Assembly: GCF_050920415.1 (NCBI RefSeq)
Contig: NZ_CP169309.1
From: Escherichia coli
Lineage (GTDB): Bacteria > Pseudomonadota > Gammaproteobacteria > Enterobacterales > Enterobacteriaceae
Length of the DNA: 64,000 nt
Strand: one strand, 5' to 3'
Shown: positions 1,791 to 36,353 of the stretch, piece by piece
Layout of the letters: every line of letters begins with the position of its first letter
Numbering within the stretch: position 1 is the first letter of the stretch
Position numbers and translations under genes: made by a program
The notes under the pieces: model-generated
What the model was told of the DNA's origin: nothing
The model's input: the letters and a program-made list of their open reading frames with translations, nothing else
The model's database searches: none

Positions 1791-2092
1791 GATTGTCTGC
1801 TCCCCTGTCTTGTTATGGGAGCAGTATTTCGTTGCTGGTCAGTTTGATAAAGGAATTAAAACGTCTTGTTAAGAACAAAGCGTTTTTAGAAAAAAACTGG
1901 CAATGGTTAGCGAGTTTACGCATTTTGCAGCTTGGGCGAATGTAGCATGCCGATTCACAAACCAGATCAGATGTTCGCGCTCCGGCAAATTATTGCCATT
2001 TTGTTACATCCATTCCATATCTGTCGCTGGTTGATTGCCAGCGACGCGCCGTGATGCATGATAGGAGAATGAGATAATAAGAGAAGAAAAGT

Positions 2093-2722
2093 ATGATTAG
2101 GGTTGTGCTGGTGGATGACCATGTGGTGGTGCGCTCTGGCTTCGCACAGTTACTCTCTCTGGAAGACGATCTGGAGGTCATTGGTCAGTACAGTTGTGCC
2201 GCGCAGGCATGGTCGGCATTAACTCATAATGACGTTAATGTTGCCGTCATTGATATCGCCATGCCGGACGAAAATGGCCTCAGTCTGCTTAAGCGCCTGC
2301 GTGCACAAAAACCGCAATTTCGCGCCATTATTCTTAGCATTTATGACGCGCCCACCTTTGTGCAAAGCGCGCTGGATGCCGGTGCCAGCGGCTATTTGAC
2401 CAAACGCTGTGGGCCGGAAGAGTTAGTACAGGCGGTGCGCTCGGTCGGGCTGGGCGGGCATTATCTCTGTGCCGATGCAATTCGGGCTTTACGCGGCGGC
2501 GGGCAACCTGCCCAGGCGCTGGAAATTCTCACCCCACGAGAACGTGAAGTGTTTGATTTACTGGTCAAAGGAGACAGCGTTAAAGAGATCGCCTTTAAAC
2601 TCGAACTCAGTCATAAAACGGTACATGTGCATCGCGCCAATGTGCTGGGAAAACTGAACTGCCATAGCACCATTGAACTGGTACATTTTGCGCTCGACCA
2701 CCATCTGCTGGCGGGGCATTAA
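2093..2722 (+). CDS. NarL/UhpA-family response regulator (receiver + LuxR-type HTH), UhpA paralog
   Basis: 209 aa; receiver motifs VLVDDH and DIAMPDENG; C-terminal LuxR HTH (LTPREREVFDLL...KTVHVHRANVLGKL); roughly 50% identity to UhpA by eye; stop overlaps the kinase start (TAATG). Confidence 0.85.
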   Translation: MIRVVLVDDHVVVRSGFAQLLSLEDDLEVIGQYSCAAQAWSALTHNDVNVAVIDIAMPDENGLSLLKRLRAQKPQFRAIILSIYDAPTFVQSALDAGASGYLTKRCGPEELVQAVRSVGLGGHYLCADAIRALRGGGQPAQALEILTPREREVFDLLVKGDSVKEIAFKLELSHKTVHVHRANVLGKLNCHSTIELVHFALDHHLLAGH

Positions 2723-4263
2723 TGTCGCGTAACCTTCGTCATTGGGTGATTTCGCTGTTTATTGTGCTGGCCTGGGGAAGCGGCTGGCTGATGTTGTGGA
2801 CGCTCAGCTTTTATCTGACCAATAACGGTCAACAGGCAGTGTTATTTCTGCCGCACGGAGTTTACCTCGCTCTTCTTATTTTGCTCTCTCGCCGTTACTG
2901 GCCTGCGTTGGTGCACCCCCCTTTGCTGATGATGTTCTGGCTGCACAGCGAGCAACTGTTGAACGGCTATCTCATGCTGGCAACGCCGGTTATTAGCCTG
3001 CTTCCTGCCATCCTTGCACAAAACGTCTGGCACCGTTTTCCACTTTACTGGCAGCGTCTGACGTTGCTGTTAGCCTCAGTAACAGCAGCTTCATTGCTGA
3101 ATACAGCCATGCTAACCCCTTTTATGTCAGGCCCAATAATGCTGCCCGGTCTGACCTCATTTACCGGCAGCGTATTGTTGACGCCGTTTGTCTATCTCAT
3201 CTTTGAGTTTCTGCGCCAGCAGCATCGCTATCAGCTTCTGAGACTCGATACGCATAATCCCCCCTTGCGAACCTCTTTAATCATCTGGTGTAGCCTATTT
3301 TTTATTATTGGTATCGGCACCCAGATGGTGTTGTCGCCTGAAATCGAACGCCTGCTGCTGATCGTGGTATTTCTACCCAATGTGGTCATGGCCTGGAAAT
3401 TTGGCTGGCAAGGTGGCGTACTCTCGGGGCTTTTGGGCAGCATGATGATCACTATTGCCCGCCAGATTGGCGTGGGCTTTAGTAACCTGGTGGAACTGGA
3501 GATTTTTCTCGCAACCCAGGCATTGCTGGGAATTGGCCTGGGCATTGCCATCAGTCGCCAGCAACATCTGGCGCTAAACCTGCATCATTACCGTCAGCGA
3601 CTGGAGGCAGAACTGGCAGCACGGCGGGCATTGGCTGAAAAGCTGATCCACACCGAGGAAGACACGCGTAAAAGCCTGGCTCGCGAGCTGCACGACGAAA
3701 TCGGTCAGAACATTACCGCCATTCAGATCCAGTCGCAACTGGTGACGCGGGCACGCGATCCGGCGCAAGTTCATTCCGCAGCTAGCCAAATCAACGAACT
3801 CGCCCGCCGCATTCATCTCTCCACCCGCCAGTTGCTGCGCCAGTTGCGGCCACCCGCGCTTGATGAACTGACATTCCGCGAAGCATTACTTCATCTGATT
3901 AATGAATTTGCCTTTAGTGAACGCGGCATTCATTGCCAGTTTACCTATCAACTAACCACCACGCCAGAAAACGAAACGGTTCGCTTTACACTGTATCGGT
4001 TATTGCAGGAGTTACTCAATAACGTCTGTAAACACGCCGAAGCCAGCGAAGTGACGATTATTCTGCGCCAGCAGGGAGAGATATTGCACCTGGAGGTCAG
4101 CGACAACGGTATAGGAATCGCCAGCGGGAAAATGACCGGATTTGGCATTCAGGGGATGCGTGAACGCATCAGTGCCCTGGGCGGCGACTTAACGCTCGAA
4201 AAACATAACGGTACGCGGGTAATTGTTAACCTGCCCACATTTTTGCAACAAATCGCCGGATAA
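2722..4263 (+). CDS. Sensor histidine kinase, UhpB-like (membrane MASE1-type N-terminus, HisKA_3 H-box, HATPase)
   Basis: 513 aa; multi-TM N-terminal half; H-box ELHDEIGQNITAI; ATPase motifs DNGIGI and GFGIQGMRER; translationally coupled to the upstream regulator. Confidence 0.85.
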   Translation: MSRNLRHWVISLFIVLAWGSGWLMLWTLSFYLTNNGQQAVLFLPHGVYLALLILLSRRYWPALVHPPLLMMFWLHSEQLLNGYLMLATPVISLLPAILAQNVWHRFPLYWQRLTLLLASVTAASLLNTAMLTPFMSGPIMLPGLTSFTGSVLLTPFVYLIFEFLRQQHRYQLLRLDTHNPPLRTSLIIWCSLFFIIGIGTQMVLSPEIERLLLIVVFLPNVVMAWKFGWQGGVLSGLLGSMMITIARQIGVGFSNLVELEIFLATQALLGIGLGIAISRQQHLALNLHHYRQRLEAELAARRALAEKLIHTEEDTRKSLARELHDEIGQNITAIQIQSQLVTRARDPAQVHSAASQINELARRIHLSTRQLLRQLRPPALDELTFREALLHLINEFAFSERGIHCQFTYQLTTTPENETVRFTLYRLLQELLNNVCKHAEASEVTIILRQQGEILHLEVSDNGIGIASGKMTGFGIQGMRERISALGGDLTLEKHNGTRVIVNLPTFLQQIAG

Positions 4264-4347
4264 CCAGGAAAAAGTCTTAGGCATCCCGGATTTTCTCTCA
4301 TCCTCTTTCACTTTCATTTTCATATAGTCAGCAACATGGAGACGACC

Positions 4348-5652
4348 ATGCACGCGCGTTCAGCGAGAGAGATTAATCAATGCTACCGGACATTACGTCC
4401 GCGATTGCTGATGTGCATGATTATTGGCTACGCCGCATTTTATCTGACGCGAAAAAGCGTGAATTACGTCCTTCCGGCGCTGCAAACCGACCTCGGACTG
4501 GATAAAGGCGACATTGGCCTGCTGGGTTCGCTGTTTTATCTCAGCTACGGATTGTCGAAATTTACCGCCGGACTGTGGCATGACAGCCACGGACAACGCG
4601 GTTTTATGGGCGTCGGCTTGTTCGCCACTGGGCTATTGAACGTGGTGTTTGCCTTTGGCGAATCACTTACGCTTCTGCTTGTGGTCTGGACACTGAACGG
4701 ATTTTTTCAAGGCTGGGGGTGGCCACCGTGTGCCCGCTTACTGACCCATTGGTACTCCCGTAATGAACGTGGTTTCTGGTGGGGCTGCTGGAATATGTCG
4801 ATCAACATTGGCGGAGCGATTATTCCGCTGATTAGCGCCTTTGCCGCCCACTGGTGGGGCTGGCAGGCCGCGATGCTGACACCGGGGATTATCAGCATGG
4901 CATTAGGGATCTGGTTAACGCTACAGCTTAAAGGCACCCCCCAGGAAGAGGGATTACCGACGGTGGGTCAGTGGCGTCACGATCCGCTGGAATTACGTCA
5001 GGAACAACAAAGTCCGCCGATGGGGCTGTGGCAAATGTTGCGCACCACAATGCTGCAAAATCCGATGATCTGGCTGCTGGGTGTCTCTTATGTACTGGTT
5101 TATGTGATCCGGATTGCGTTAAACGACTGGGGCAATATCTGGCTGACGGAAAGCCACGGCGTCAACCTACTCAGCGCCAACGCCACGGTAATGCTGTTTG
5201 AAGTGGGCGGCTTACTCGGCGCGTTATTTGCCGGATGGGGTTCGGATTTGCTGTTTAGCGGGCAGCGAGCCCCCATGATTTTGCTGTTTACCCTGGGGTT
5301 GATGGTTTCGGTCGCTGCACTCTGGTTGGCACCGGTTCATCACTATGCCCTTCTGGCTGTGTGCTTTTTTACTGTGGGCTTTTTTGTCTTTGGCCCGCAA
5401 ATGCTGATTGGACTTGCGGCAGTGGAATGTGGACACAAAGCTGCGGCGGGTTCAATCACCGGATTTCTCGGTCTGTTCGCCTATCTCGGTGCGGCGCTGG
5501 CAGGCTGGCCATTGTCGCTGGTTATCGAACGCTACGGCTGGTCAGGAATGTTCAGTTTACTCTCGGTCGCCGCAGTACTTATGGGTTTACTGCTGATGCC
5601 GTTACTGATGGCGGGCATCACCACCACTCACGCTCGAAGGATAAAACAATGA
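4348..5652 (+). CDS. MFS organophosphate:phosphate antiporter-family protein, UhpC-like sensor/transporter
   Basis: 12-TM MFS with strong similarity to UhpC/UhpT family (e.g. FGPQMLIG..AAVEC, GFLGLFAYLGAALAGWPL); start chosen at ATG 4348 with GGAG 6 nt upstream; in-frame alternative ATG at 4336. Confidence 0.85.
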   Translation: MHARSAREINQCYRTLRPRLLMCMIIGYAAFYLTRKSVNYVLPALQTDLGLDKGDIGLLGSLFYLSYGLSKFTAGLWHDSHGQRGFMGVGLFATGLLNVVFAFGESLTLLLVVWTLNGFFQGWGWPPCARLLTHWYSRNERGFWWGCWNMSINIGGAIIPLISAFAAHWWGWQAAMLTPGIISMALGIWLTLQLKGTPQEEGLPTVGQWRHDPLELRQEQQSPPMGLWQMLRTTMLQNPMIWLLGVSYVLVYVIRIALNDWGNIWLTESHGVNLLSANATVMLFEVGGLLGALFAGWGSDLLFSGQRAPMILLFTLGLMVSVAALWLAPVHHYALLAVCFFTVGFFVFGPQMLIGLAAVECGHKAAAGSITGFLGLFAYLGAALAGWPLSLVIERYGWSGMFSLLSVAAVLMGLLLMPLLMAGITTTHARRIKQ

Positions 5653-6680
5653 AAATGCCCCTTACCTCTACTCTGATTGCTTCTGCCGTTGCGCTGGCAA
5701 CCTTAACGGGTGCCGCACAAGCGAAAGGTCGACTGGTGGTCTATTGCAGCGCCACCAATGAAATGTGTGAGACCGAAACCAAAGCGTTTGGCGAGAAATA
5801 TGATGTGAAAACCTCGTTTATCCGCAACGGCTCCGGTAGCACCCTGGCAAAAGTCGATGCTGAAAAGAAAAACCCACAGGCTGACGTCTGGTACGGCGGC
5901 ACCTTAGACCCGCAGTCGCAGGCCGGCGAGATGGGTCTGTTACAGGCATATAAATCGCCTAACCTTGAACAGATCATGGAAAAATTCCGCGATCCGGCAA
6001 AAGTGAAAGGAAACCTTTCCTCCGCCGTTTATGTGGGGATCCTCGGGTTTGGCGTCAACACAGAGCGTCTGAAAGAGAAAAACCTGCCTGTGCCGAAGTG
6101 CTGGAAAGATCTCACCAAACCTGAATATAAAGGCGAAATTCAGATTGCCGATCCACAAAGTTCCGGTACCGCCTACACCGCGCTGGCTACCTTTGCGCAG
6201 CTGTGGGGGGAAGATCAGGCCTTTGATTATCTAAAACAACTTAACACCAACGTCTCCCAGTACACCAAATCAGGCATTGCCCCGGCACGTAACGCCGCCC
6301 GCGGCGAAACGGCGATTGGTATTGGTTTCCTGCATGACTACTCGCTGGAAAAAGAACAGGGCGCACCACTGGAGTTGATTTCCCCGTGTGAAGGTACGGG
6401 CTACGAAATTGGCGGCGTCAGCATTCTGAAAGGCGCGCGCAACCTCGACAACGCCAAACTGTTTGTGGACTGGGTATTATCAAAAGAAGCTCAGGAACTG
6501 GCGTGGAAGAAAGGGAAGTCTTATCAGATCCTGACCAATACCACCGCCGAAACGTCGCCAAATTCGCTGAAGCTCGACGACCTGAAATTAATCAACTACG
6601 ACATGGATAAATACGGTTCCACGGATGTTCGTAAGGCATTGATTAATAAATGGGTCAGCGAAGTGAAGATGGGTAAATAA
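5649..6680 (+). CDS. afuA: Periplasmic substrate-binding protein, FbpA/AfuA family (putative sugar-phosphate binding)
   Basis: Start ATG 5649 overlaps MFS stop (ATGA) with AAGGA 7 nt upstream; signal peptide MKMPLTSTLIASAVALATLTGAAQA; FbpA-fold family; track ORF 5361 is an upstream in-frame extension that overlaps the MFS gene. Confidence 0.8.
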   Translation: MKMPLTSTLIASAVALATLTGAAQAKGRLVVYCSATNEMCETETKAFGEKYDVKTSFIRNGSGSTLAKVDAEKKNPQADVWYGGTLDPQSQAGEMGLLQAYKSPNLEQIMEKFRDPAKVKGNLSSAVYVGILGFGVNTERLKEKNLPVPKCWKDLTKPEYKGEIQIADPQSSGTAYTALATFAQLWGEDQAFDYLKQLNTNVSQYTKSGIAPARNAARGETAIGIGFLHDYSLEKEQGAPLELISPCEGTGYEIGGVSILKGARNLDNAKLFVDWVLSKEAQELAWKKGKSYQILTNTTAETSPNSLKLDDLKLINYDMDKYGSTDVRKALINKWVSEVKMGK

Positions 6681-6748
6681 ACCCGCATTGCGTGCATTTG
6701 CCGGGCGCAGCACAAACGCCTGCCCCGGCCAACCATACCGGAACTGCT

Positions 6749-8827
6749 ATGTCACAGACACTTGCACTCCATCCCGTGAAAAAGCGGGATGCGATTTTCC
6801 TTTGGGTTTTGCTGGGCTGGCTGGCATTTATCCTGTTGCCGAGCTGGAGTCTCGATTATGGTCTGCTGGAGTCCACGAGTGATGAGATCCTCGAGGCGTA
6901 CAGCTGGTCGCATTTTAATATCAGCTGGCTGTGGTATTTACTCCCGAGTTTGCTGCTGGTTCGCCCGTTTAATGAGGCCAAACGCGAGCAGCGTAGCCGT
7001 CATTATTTTGATGCCGGCTGGGCATTGCTTTGTTTAGCGTTTATGGTCATCAGTGCCACCATCGTTGGCCGCGGTCTAGGCTACGCCGCCATCGTGCTGT
7101 TTATCGAATTAAGCGCGATAATGACGCTGGCCTTAACCCGCCTCGAATGGCTGGGTGGCGACCGCTTTGTGATCGGCTCGCTGATTGCGATTGTGGCGCT
7201 GATTGGCATTTTTATCGTCTGGCCGAGCATCGCCATTTTTATCCCGATGTTCACCAACGACGCGGGAGGGTTCGCCCCACTGGCGTTTATGAATGTGCTC
7301 TCGCAGGCACATATTGTTCAGGTGATCGTCAACTCCATCGTCTTATCGATAGCGGTGGGTATTGGCTGTACTTTCTTCGGTCTGGTGCTGGCGATATATA
7401 CCACGCGCATCGCCAAACGCAGCGCCGTAATCGGCCGCATCTTTTCCATTCTGCCAATTGTCACGCCACCGTTTGTGGTCGGCTTAGGCGTTACGCTCAT
7501 GATGGGGCGCTCCGGCTACATAACGGAATTTATGGTGGAGTGGTTTGGGCTGACCAACACCAACTGGCTGTATGGTTTTACCGGGATCTGGCTGGCACAG
7601 GTCCTGGCATTCACGCCAATGGCTTTTATGATCCTTGATGGGGCCATTAAAACCATTCATCCCTCGCTGGAAGAGGCCTCCTACACCCTGCGTGCCAGCC
7701 GCTGGCAAACCTTTAACGGCGTGTTTGTGCCGTTGCTAAAGCCCGCGCTCGCCAATGCCTTTTTAATCGTCGTGGTACAGTCACTGGCTGATTTCAGTAA
7801 CCCGCTGGTGCTTGGCGGCAACTTCGACGTACTGGCGACGCAAATTTACTTCTACATTACCGGCTCGCAGCTGGATTATCAGGCCGCCAGCACCCTTGGC
7901 GCTTTCCTGCTGCTGTTCTCGCTACTGGTGTTCTGCGTCCAGTATATGTGGATTGGTAAACGCTCTTACGTCACGGTTTCCGGAAAGTCCTACCGCGGCG
8001 ATGTCCAGCCACTACCGGTCACCCTGGTGTGGAGCGTGGTCGCCATACTTGCGATATGGATTGTCTTTAACGCCCTGCTCTATGGCAGCATTTTCTACGG
8101 CAGCTTCACCGTGAACTGGGGCGTAGACTACACCCTAACGCTGGATAACTTTATCAAGTTATTTGGTCAGGGGATGAGCGACGGCGCGTGGCCTTCACTG
8201 TTAGATACCTTGCTCTACGCCGGGATTGCCGCACCCATTACCGCTATCTTTGGCCTGCTCATCGCCTGGGTGGTGGTGCGCCAACAATTCAAAGGCAAAA
8301 AGACCATCGAGTTCACCACCATGTTGTGCTTTGCCGTACCGGGTACGGTGGCGGGCGTCTCGTATATTCTCGCCTTTAACAGCGCTCCGGTTTATCTCAC
8401 CGGAACGGCGGCAATTGTGATTATCTCGATGGTGATGCGTAACGTTCCGGTGGGTATTCGCGCCGGGATTGCGGGTCTGGGGCAGATCGACAAATCGCTG
8501 GATGAAGCCTCACTTAGCCTGCGTGCGGGTTCCCTGCGAACCATTACGCACATTTTACTGCCGTTGTTACGCCCAGCTATTCTCTCGGCCCTGATTTACA
8601 GCTTTGTGCGGGCTATCACGACGGTCAGCGCCATCGTCTTTCTCGTCACGCCGGACACACGCGTGGCAACCGCCTACATCCTTAACCGCGTAGAAGACGG
8701 CGAATATGGCGTAGCCATCGCCTACGGTTCGATTCTGATCGTGGTGATGCTGGCGATTATTTTCCTCTTTGACTGGCTGATCGGTGAAGCACGTATTTCC
8801 CGTTCTAAAGCCAAAAACCAGGCGTAA
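6749..8827 (+). CDS. afuB: Fused two-domain ABC permease, FbpB/AfuB family
   Basis: About 690 aa polytopic membrane protein with duplicated permease halves typical of FbpB; start at ATG 6749 is tentative (track ORF begins at GTG 6692). Confidence 0.8.
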
Positions 8828-8838
8828 TGGAGCGCACT

Positions 8839-9885
8839 ATGAGTCAGAAAAATTTTGTGGAACTGCGCAACGTCACTAAACGATTCGGCAGTAATACGGT
8901 TATCGACAATATCAATCTCACCATCCCACAAGGGCAAATGGTGACGCTGCTCGGTCCTTCCGGATGCGGCAAAACCACCATTCTGCGTCTGGTTGCCGGG
9001 CTGGAAAAACCGAGCGAAGGGCAAATTTTTATAGATGGCGAAGATGTCACGCATCGTTCCATTCAGCAACGCGATATCTGCATGGTGTTTCAGTCATACG
9101 CTCTGTTCCCACATATGTCGCTGGGCGAAAACGTTGGCTATGGGCTGAAAATGCTTGGCGTGTCGCGTAGTGAAGTGAAGCAGCGGGTGAAAGATGCGCT
9201 AGCAATGGTGGATCTGGAAGGATTCGAAGACCGCTATGTCGACCAGATTTCCGGTGGTCAGCAACAGCGTGTGGCTCTGGCCCGTGCGTTGATCCTTAAG
9301 CCTAAAGTGCTGCTGTTTGATGAGCCGTTAAGTAACCTCGATGCCAACCTGCGTCGCAGCATGCGCGATAAAATCCGCGAGCTGCAAAAGCAATTTAACA
9401 TCACTTCGCTCTATGTGACTCACGATCAAAGTGAAGCTTTCGCGGTGTCCGACACCGTGTTGGTGATGAATAAAGGTCACATCATGCAGATTGGTTCACC
9501 GCAGGATCTCTATCGTCAGCCCGCCTCCCGCTTTATGGCAAGTTTTATGGGCGACGCCAACCTGTTCCCGGCGAACTTTAGCGAAGAGTATGTCGATATC
9601 TACGGTTATCGCCTGCCGCGCGCGGCGCATTTCCCGGCGCAAGGTAGCGGCACCGTCGGCGTTCGCCCGGAAGCCATCACCTTAAGCAATCACGGCGAAG
9701 AGAGTCAGCGTTGTGTTATTCGCCATGTCGCCTACATGGGGCCGCAGTACGAAGTGACCGTAGAATGGCATGGTCAGGAGATTTTATTGCAAGTCAACGC
9801 CACCCGTTTACAGCCCGATATTGGTGAGCACTATTACCTCGAAATCCATCCTTACGGGATGTTTGTTTTAGCGGATGCGGCATAA
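8839..9885 (+). CDS. afuC: ABC transporter ATP-binding protein, FbpC/AfuC family with C-terminal TOBE-like domain
   Basis: Walker [10 protein letters not shown], signature [15 protein letters not shown], Walker B LLFDEP; start ATG 8839 with GGAG 6 nt upstream; alternative ATG 8827 overlaps the afuB stop. Confidence 0.8.
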
Positions 9886-35104: not shown

Positions 35105-36353
35105 TGTTAGCCTCCACATGCGTCATTGCAGCTGTCGTTTTGCGATTCAAAATCGGGTTAAGGATCAGATAACTCAGCGCACCACCTAATACCGCGTTGA
35201 CCGGAACAATGCCCGGTAACCAGTGGCCTGCGGCAATCCCCAGCGCGACCGCCAGAATCGCCACCCAATTGACACTCATCATACGCGTGGTCGCAAAGTG
35301 CTCATAGCGGCGACGGTTCATCAGATAGTCGGCGATGATCACGCCACCCACCGGAGGAATAGCAGCCGAAAGGAAGGTTAGCCAGCCGACAAAATTGTTA
35401 TACAGCCATAGTGCGCAGACCGTGCCGATAATACCGTTGATTACTGAAAGAGTTTTGCTCGACATACCGGTAATATTGGCGAAACCTAAACCCGACGCAT
35501 AGAGCGCGTTATCGTTGGTGGTCCAGATATTCAACCCCAGCACCACAATCGCGGGCAGCAGCAAGCCCTGAGCAATCATCACATCAGAGATATCCGCCAT
35601 CCCCAGTGCCGCAGCGCCTGCCGCACCGAAAATAAACATCAACGAGTTGCCGAGGAAAAAGGCCACCATCGCCACCAGCACCGCCAGTTTGGCATTGCGA
35701 CCAAAGCGGACAAAGTCAGCGGTGAGCGTACCCGCACTGATAAATGACCCCACAACCAGCGCCAGCGCGACATTGAAATCTAGCGGTTGTGCGGGAACGA
35801 CCGCTTTTAAGGCGTCCAAACCGCCCATGCCGTTAACGGCCAGCCATACGGAATAACCGCCAAGGCAGGCAATCGCCGGAACCGCAATCACCGAAAGTAC
35901 CGTCAGCGCCGAAATGCCAAAGAAGACGGTGACGGTCATCAGTAAACCGGAAACGGCAATCAGCAAATTAATATCCAGCCCGGTTGCCTTGCCCACCGGA
36001 ATAGCAAACATCGCCACGCCAACACCAAACCAGCCGACCTGAGTGCCGCCCAGCAGCAGTGAAGGCAGCCATGAGCCTTTAACACCAAACGAGAAGCGAG
36101 CAAGAAGATGGGTGGTCAGGCCGGTTTTTGCGCCAATGTAACCAAGAAATGAAGTGTAAATACCGAGGAGAAGATTACCGATGAGGACTGCGAGGAAGAA
36201 ATCATGATAGCTAAGACCGGTTCCGAGAGTGCCGCCGGTCCACATACTGGCGGAAAAGAAGGTTAATCCCAGCATGACGAACGTCAATGCCAATACCCCT
36301 TTCCGCGCCGACTGCGGGACTGGCCCCTGGCTAAAGTTGTTATCTTGCGACAC
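35094..36353 (-). CDS. codB: Cytosine permease (NCS1 family)
   Basis: 419 aa; [29 protein letters not shown]...; matches CodB. Confidence 0.95.

Follow-up and report, generated by a model that had tools for sequence, protein, structure and literature searches.

The 84 nucleotides that separate the genes for a sensor histidine kinase and a UhpC-like transporter in Escherichia coli raise a simple question: do they hold a promoter and, if so, which of their sequences would a regulator recognise? The most eye-catching candidates are three tandem hexamers, CTTTCA (4305-4310), CTTTCA (4311-4316) and TTTTCA (4317-4322), which run directly into a TATAGT element (4323-4328). Positions refer to the window, by which we mean the whole 64-kb stretch of DNA that was analysed. 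We consider it likely that a sigma-70 promoter of the uhpT type occupies the gap, serving the UhpC-like gene together with afuABC, and that the hexamers are spacer filling rather than a recognition site.

Genes flanking the gap

Between tauABCD and frmRAB lies a block of six genes on the forward strand that encode, in order, a response regulator, a MASE1 histidine kinase, a UhpC-like MFS protein, AfuA, AfuB and AfuC. The same block in O157:H7 comprises ECs_0418 to ECs_0413. According to two papers, O-island 20 (OI-20) carries fusR/fusK (z0463/z0462), z0461 and afuABC (PMC6199705; PMC4546632). The locus in the window is E. coli OI-20, and over 2000-6700 the window matches strain MFDS1022581 at 100% identity.

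The regulator gene, of the FusR/z0463 type (open reading frame at 2093-2722), encodes a UhpA paralogue of the NarL/FixJ family. Its product is 48% identical to UhpA of K-12 (encoded at 8137-8727 of locus L002) and has the same recognition helix, KTVHVHRAN; its top NCBIfam match is UhpA, under the equivalog cut-off. The kinase gene (2722-4263, from the open reading frame and the RefSeq annotation) is of the FusK/z0462 type, a UhpB paralogue, and ends at the TAA of 4261-4263. Here the top NCBIfam match is UhpB, at 369.9 bits and hence below the equivalog cut-off of 408. The product of the MFS gene (z0461/ECs_0416; 4348-5652) reaches 587 bits with the UhpC subfamily model of NCBIfam, over the cut-off of 564. 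It is followed by afuA (5649-6680), afuB (6749-8827) and afuC (8839-9885), annotated as a sugar-phosphate ABC importer; AfuABC is an importer of hexose and heptose phosphates (PMC4546632). By annotation and profile matches, the genes beside the gap encode counterparts of UhpA, of UhpB (a MASE1 kinase) and of UhpC. Judged from these matches, the block is a UhpABC paralogue set, with an ABC importer standing where UhpT would.

Reviews present FusKR as specific to EHEC O157:H7 and possibly derived from Enterococcus faecalis. The locus in the window is that same FusKR/z0461 locus, yet, unlike the reviews' picture, it is found well beyond EHEC. Of 5426 complete E. coli genomes, 519 carry the block (2093-9885), among them those of non-EHEC isolates from dogs, poultry, water and humans, and many genera of Enterobacterales have it too, with kinase identities of 56-86%. 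In O157:H7 genomes, where the block sits between tauA and frmR, the gap region is about 96% identical to that of the window; the hexamers are the same, and there is one T-to-C change at 4304.

Conservation of the gap

A scan of one genome per species gave 80 loci with an orthologous kinase (56-95% identity), drawn from genera including Klebsiella, Raoultella, Citrobacter, Trabulsiella, Enterobacter, Leclercia, Serratia, Atlantibacter, Buttiauxella, Rahnella, Ewingella and Photorhabdus. The order of regulator, kinase, gap, MFS gene and afuA is kept in all loci long enough to show it. The MFS gene overlaps afuA or is separated from it by 9-57 nt, save in one locus with a mobile-element insertion, and with such short spacing a promoter in the gap would serve the MFS gene and afuABC jointly. 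In Klebsiella sp. BIGb0407 (L062, 7897-8100), the interval between these two genes is 138 nt and contains an ERIC-like fragment, CAACTTGAAGTATGACGGGTA, in contrast to the overlaps or distances of at most 57 nt in the other compared loci.

Conservation was measured over 79 distinct gaps as identity to the base of the window, and loci with a kinase less than 80% identical were counted as distant. Four blocks of the gap are retained in this alignment. A palindrome at 4264-4280 has an identity of 0.93 over all loci and 0.88 over the distant ones; for the block at 4288-4304, which covers most of a second box described below, the values are 0.79 and 0.73. TATAGT (4323-4328) reaches 0.91 over all loci, 0.85 over distant loci and 1.00 where the kinase is at least 80% identical, and GGAG (4338-4341) has 0.93 and 0.88. 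The three hexamers (4305-4322) form the lowest segment of the gap, with identities of 0.63 over all loci and 0.51 over distant loci, and the middle hexamer (4311-4316) falls to 0.54 and 0.32.

Resemblance to the uhpT promoter

Two candidate regulator sites lie upstream of the hexamers. The first, which we call the S box, is a 17-bp near-palindrome, CCAGGAAAAAGTCTTAG, at 4264-4280, centred at about -63; we propose it as a high-affinity site for regulator dimers. In Rahnella and Ewingella it is a perfect palindrome, CTAGGAATAATTCCTAG. The second, the W box, is a degenerate counterpart, CCCGGATTTTCTCTCAT, at 4285-4301, centred at about -42 and lying over the -35 position. Its TCTCAT is conserved in all promoters of the afu type, and a weight matrix built from S boxes has a local maximum in the exact register of the W box. 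The W box and the -10 are set apart by a spacer (4302-4322, forward strand) that holds the hexamers; it is 21 nt long in 13 of 13 promoters and unconserved in sequence.

The promoters set beside these were those of uhpT in E. coli K-12, Enterobacter kobei, Plesiomonas shigelloides and Vibrio metschnikovii; a Tatumella uhpT locus (L086) without adjacent uhpABC, and without the S and W architecture, was left out. At the V. metschnikovii locus (L088, 1-1715 and 3527-5401), uhpT is flanked on both sides by sets of regulator and MASE1-kinase genes, and on one side the kinase is split into open reading frames of 215 and 304 aa and may be a pseudogene.

All nine afu-type and four uhpT promoters examined share one layout: a CRP-like site, the S box, a linker, the W box, a 21-nt spacer and TAnAnT. 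From the centre of the S box down to the -10, the distance is 51 bp in promoters of the afu type and 52 bp in those of uhpT. In all 13, the 17-bp W box ends in TCTCAT or TCTCAG, with exactly 21 nt between it and TAnAnT; the W box of the window aligns with CCTGGACGCTATCTCAG of uhpT and CTAAGACCCTCTCTCAT of Vibrio, again 21 nt from the -10 each time. When afu-type and uhpT promoters were aligned with MAFFT, invariant columns fell only in the conserved blocks. T4296, C4297, C4299 and A4300 of the W box are invariant across seven afu-type and four uhpT promoters, and no invariant column lies between 4301 and 4322.

The S box itself is shared with uhpT. The reverse complement of the S box of the window, CTAAGACTTTTTCCTGG, matches the -64 element of K-12 uhpT, CTAAGAAATTTTCCAGG, at 14 of 17 positions, and the reverse complement matches the Vibrio uhpT element at 15 of 17. 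Setting the CAP site of K-12 at -103.5 places the centre of its palindrome at -64, and we take this palindrome to be the '-64 element' of the Kadner laboratory. A weight matrix derived from afu-type S boxes alone returned the uhpT element as the single top match in all four uhpT loci (5-10 kb each), with top scores of 16-24 and runners-up of at most 8.3. The same matrix finds one S box in the 64-kb window, with a score of 22.7; simulated maxima average 11, and the next score in the window, 8.9, lies below the maxima of shuffles, so that no further S-type box was found there. A match to the S pattern with two mismatches at 36211 was set aside as within chance expectation.

This arrangement recalls what has been described for uhpT. 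There, UhpA has a strong site upstream and a weak one downstream (PMC4790336), and a CAP site has been placed at about -103, which is some 30 bp further upstream than the UhpA site (PMC5352689). The gap of the window likewise offers a palindromic, putatively strong site near -64 and, adjacent to it, a putatively weak one over the -35, both recognised from sequence. The likeness extends to the CRP-type site 91.5 bp from the -10, the 21-nt unconserved spacer, the TAnAnT -10 with no -35, the adjacent genes of UhpA, UhpB and UhpC type, and the regulator's UhpA-identical recognition helix. We infer that the phosphorylated UhpA-like regulator, encoded just upstream, would bind the S palindrome as dimers and the degenerate W box cooperatively, and that from the W box it could contact polymerase and so act positively. 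The conserved candidate regulator sites would be the 4264-4280 palindrome and the 4285-4301 box, not the hexamers.

There are also differences. The gap promoter would drive the UhpC-like gene and afuABC and lies between the kinase and UhpC-like genes, whereas the uhpT promoter drives the antiporter gene uhpT and follows uhpC. The linker between the S and W boxes is 4 nt in afu-type promoters and 5 nt in uhpT promoters, which puts the box centres 21 and 22 bp apart, respectively; the leader is about 13 nt in the former and about 45 nt in the latter. The -10 reads TATAGT here and TACAAT in uhpT, and in both it is set equally far from the CRP site and from the W box. The left half-site of the CRP-like element (TGTTA) is weaker here than in uhpT, and the hexamers have no counterpart in uhpT promoters. 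Further, published work ascribes repression and fucose sensing to the regulator of this locus, FusR, unlike the uhpT system. Because the recognition helices are identical and the S boxes agree at 14 of 17 positions, cross-regulation of uhpT and afu promoters is plausible where both systems coexist.

A CRP-like site within the kinase gene

The last codons of the kinase gene contain a CRP-like site at 4221-4242 (core 4224-4239), centred at 4231.5, or about -103.5. Its core, TGTTA-N6-CCACA (TGTTAACCTGCCCACA), agrees with the consensus at 8 of 10 core positions, and the whole site agrees with the 22-bp consensus AAATGTGATCTAGATCACATTT at 15 of 22 by direct count. At a single pre-specified position, a core match of 8 out of 10 has a binomial probability of about 4e-4. 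The centre of the site lies 91.5 bp upstream of the first base of the -10 in nine of nine afu-type and four of four uhpT promoters. By sequence and distance, then, the predicted site occupies the place of the CRP site of uhpT. Within the stretch at 4219-4251, third-position conservation over kinase codons 500-507 is 0.99, the highest in the gene (mean 0.65, window SD 0.088); such synonymous conservation is to be expected where coding DNA contains a cis-element. Bound at about -103.5, inside the kinase gene, CRP-cAMP would stimulate the promoter further. A terminator-like hairpin at 4215-4234 was considered and dropped, its left arm being unconserved at synonymous sites and the folding of the region no better than that of shuffles.

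Probable transcription and translation signals

Measured from the stop codon of the kinase gene to the conserved ATG at 4348, the gap spans 4264-4347 and is indeed 84 nt long, as the sequence-only reading had it. That reading had also seen no recognisable -35, and we agree: the hexamers 16-18 bp upstream of the -10 (ATCCTC, CATCCT and TCCTCT) each match TTGACA at no more than one of six positions, and a consensus promoter scan is silent within the gap. The -10 hexamer itself (TATAGT, 4323-4328, forward strand) is good. Its T4323, A4324, A4326 and T4328 are invariant in a MAFFT alignment (A1) of seven afu-type and four uhpT promoters, forming an invariant TAnAnT at the same distances as in uhpT. 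Since a -10 is present without a -35, RNA polymerase would need an activator here. The -10 and an activator-dependent promoter are thus well supported by sequence comparison.

In uhpT, the CAP site at about -103 fixes the position of +1, and by the same geometry transcription from the gap would start at about 4335 (4334-4336, forward strand), with +1 twelve nucleotides past the first base of the -10. This would leave a leader of about 13 nt containing a Shine-Dalgarno sequence, GGAG (4338-4341, conservation 0.93), 6 nt before the ATG at 4348. RefSeq/PGAP places the start of the UhpC-like protein at the ATG of 4336 (438 aa), and the annotation of Sakai takes the 434-aa start, which corresponds to the ATG of 4348. 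Most orthologues have ACG or CGG in place of the former, while the latter is conserved; the true start is probably ATG 4348, from which translation would proceed.

In Raoultella planticola (L075, 6596-6789), an ERIC-like element of about 194 bp lies inside the -10, giving the order TATA, element, TATAGT, and it parts the S and W boxes from the downstream copy of the -10. The insertion contains AAGTAAGTGACTGGGGTGAG and CCCCAGGAGCTTACAT, which we take to be ERIC motifs.

Read-through and expression

The gap might instead hold no promoter, with the MFS gene and afuABC transcribed only by read-through from upstream of 2093 and the conserved blocks serving some other end. This reading can point to the silence of the consensus scan in the gap and to the want of a terminator: none was found between the kinase and MFS genes, and the folding z-score of the region is 0.11 relative to shuffles. 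It can also point to two weak sigma-70-like matches, at 2035-2062 and 2069-2097, in or near the region upstream of the regulator gene (1791-2092). No S-type box was found in that region (best matrix score -6.3). The uhpABC genes are described as having low constitutive expression, and the region at 1791-2092 resembles that state.

However, the blocks of the gap reproduce a characterised promoter, that of uhpT, element by element and at equal distances. Expression data speak against this reading as well. As O157:H7 Sakai entered stationary phase on glucose, ECs0416 rose by a log2 value of 3.55 and afuA 37-fold; acs and aceBA rose alongside, and the regulator gene changed only transiently (PMC2241611). 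The MFS gene and afuA thus change far more than the regulator gene, a pattern that, as indirect evidence, fits both catabolite control and a promoter distinct from that of the regulator gene. We regard transcription by read-through alone as exceedingly unlikely. With a uhpT-type promoter in the gap, read-through past the kinase gene could still supply much of the expression, as there is no terminator between the two genes.

The hexamer repeat

The three hexamers abut TATAGT exactly as had been noted, at 4305-4328. Within the 64-kb window, this is the only site with three tandem hexamers at one mismatch or fewer, and the 18-mer with up to three mismatches occurs once. Against this stand 0.09 expected occurrences of the 18-mer, a first-order Markov expectation of 0.21 hexamer triples per window, and a fraction of 0.00015 of shuffles of the gap that contain a triple, figures to be read in the light of a pattern that was defined after being seen. 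The repeat is real and mildly unusual. Tandem Repeats Finder and a second repeat search reported neither the hexamers nor the palindromes. Comparison by eye with Fur (NATWAT x3), Pho box, CRP and OmpR sites gave no convincing match, the agreement with the Fur consensus being 6 of 19 positions.

One interpretation is that the hexamers are a direct-repeat binding site, through which the UhpA-like regulator activates the adjacent -10. Such an interpretation is encouraged by a repeat that is locally improbable, that adjoins a conserved -10 with no -35, and whose 6-bp TTTC periodicity is kept in close relatives. The position is nevertheless awkward, for the hexamers lie at about -30 to -13, right against the -10 and inside the footprint of polymerase, not at or upstream of the -35 where an activator's tandem site would be sought. 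Nor do they follow the regulator and its target. The threefold repeat is kept, with 1-4 mismatches, only in a group comprising Escherichia, Klebsiella, Citrobacter, Raoultella, Trabulsiella and Serratia; among these, the periodicity can be recognised with 2-4 mismatches in Klebsiella, Citrobacter, Raoultella and Trabulsiella. In most loci with a kinase less than 80% identical the structure is gone (5-10 mismatches). In Rahnella, CCGCCCGACAAAACACCCGCC fills the corresponding 21 nt and shows no recognisable repeat, and the hexamers are absent from orthologues in Rahnella, Ewingella, Atlantibacter and Enterobacter and from all uhpT promoters, although the regulator shares the recognition helix of UhpA. 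The S palindrome, conserved and common to uhpT, is a better candidate. Regulators of the NarL/FixJ family bind paired half-sites, such as inverted repeats, and are not known to bind 6-bp tandem repeats. We hold activation through the hexamers to be very unlikely indeed, and very probably the regulator does not bind there. Of the promoter proposed in the sequence-only reading, then, the real -10, the missing -35 and the dependence on an activator stand, reinforced by a uhpT-like layout upstream; the hexamers, least conserved in the gap, do not stand as its recognition element.

Alternatively, the hexamers could be a lineage-specific operator, at which a repressor, FusR or another protein, would cover the spacer and block polymerase. 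A position of -30 to -13 is typical of repressor operators, the periodicity is retained across the group of Escherichia, Klebsiella and Citrobacter, and reviews state that FusKR represses z0461. But the hexamers match neither the S and W boxes nor the footprint reported for FusR at ler, a search for inverted repeats and other known operator patterns detected none, and they vary among alleles of E. coli itself, one of which (L004) reads CTTTCGCTTTTATTTTCA. The repression reported could, moreover, have another origin, considered below. An operator in the spacer seems to us very unlikely, and although the hexamers may have a lineage-restricted role of this or another kind, it is without positive support. 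In the uhpT-type promoter that we favour, the hexamers would fill the fixed 21-nt spacer from the W box to the -10 in Escherichia and its close relatives, contributing at most spacer length and T-rich character.

Published work on FusKR

Papers citing Pacheco et al. 2012 report that FusKR senses fucose and represses z0461 (PMC6199705). Repression is opposite in sign to the activator model, and it weighs against a uhpT-type activated promoter. So does the FusR footprint at ler, of which 29 nt are quoted in PMC11644481: it lacks the palindrome and scores -9.2 with the S-box matrix, and on that score a resemblance to the S box was ruled out. Since there is no terminator between the kinase and MFS genes, the apparent repression could reflect altered read-through in the mutants, or autoregulation. 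In the searchable literature, no paper was found that maps the promoter of z0461-afuABC or describes a regulator box or a CRP site for it.

The S box also invites comparison with the target of another regulator. Its consensus, CTAGGAAnnnTTCCTAG, resembles the RcsAB box, which we take to be TaAGaatatTCctA. Both are palindromic sites for dimers with helix-turn-helix domains of the FixJ/NarL type, but the recognition helices differ, and nothing points to RcsB at the gap promoter.

Implications for sugar-phosphate uptake and virulence

As promoter biology, the gap is what one would expect of a paralogue of a textbook promoter, and it yields a precise and testable map of the control region of z0461-afuABC. 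It locates the probable control region of afuABC, whose product aids gut colonisation by Citrobacter rodentium (PMC4546632), and in EHEC the same region would govern z0461 of the FusKR island. Direct targets for mutation are now at hand in the CRP-like site, the S box and the W box, and attention is moved away from the eye-catching but unconserved hexamers. The map further predicts catabolite control and possible cross-talk between UhpA and FusR.

There is also a hint that FusKR behaves at home like UhpABC. We suggest, tentatively and at somewhat less than even odds, that at its home locus FusKR is part of a complete UhpABC paralogue, whose regulator activates the UhpC-like gene and the AfuABC importer through a CRP-assisted, uhpT-type promoter. 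If so, the reported repression of z0461 would be an effect of read-through or autoregulation, and FusR, with a recognition helix identical to that of UhpA, could also act, by cross-talk, at the promoter of uhpT. What is widely cited as a virulence sensor would then be recast as primarily a regulator of sugar-phosphate uptake.
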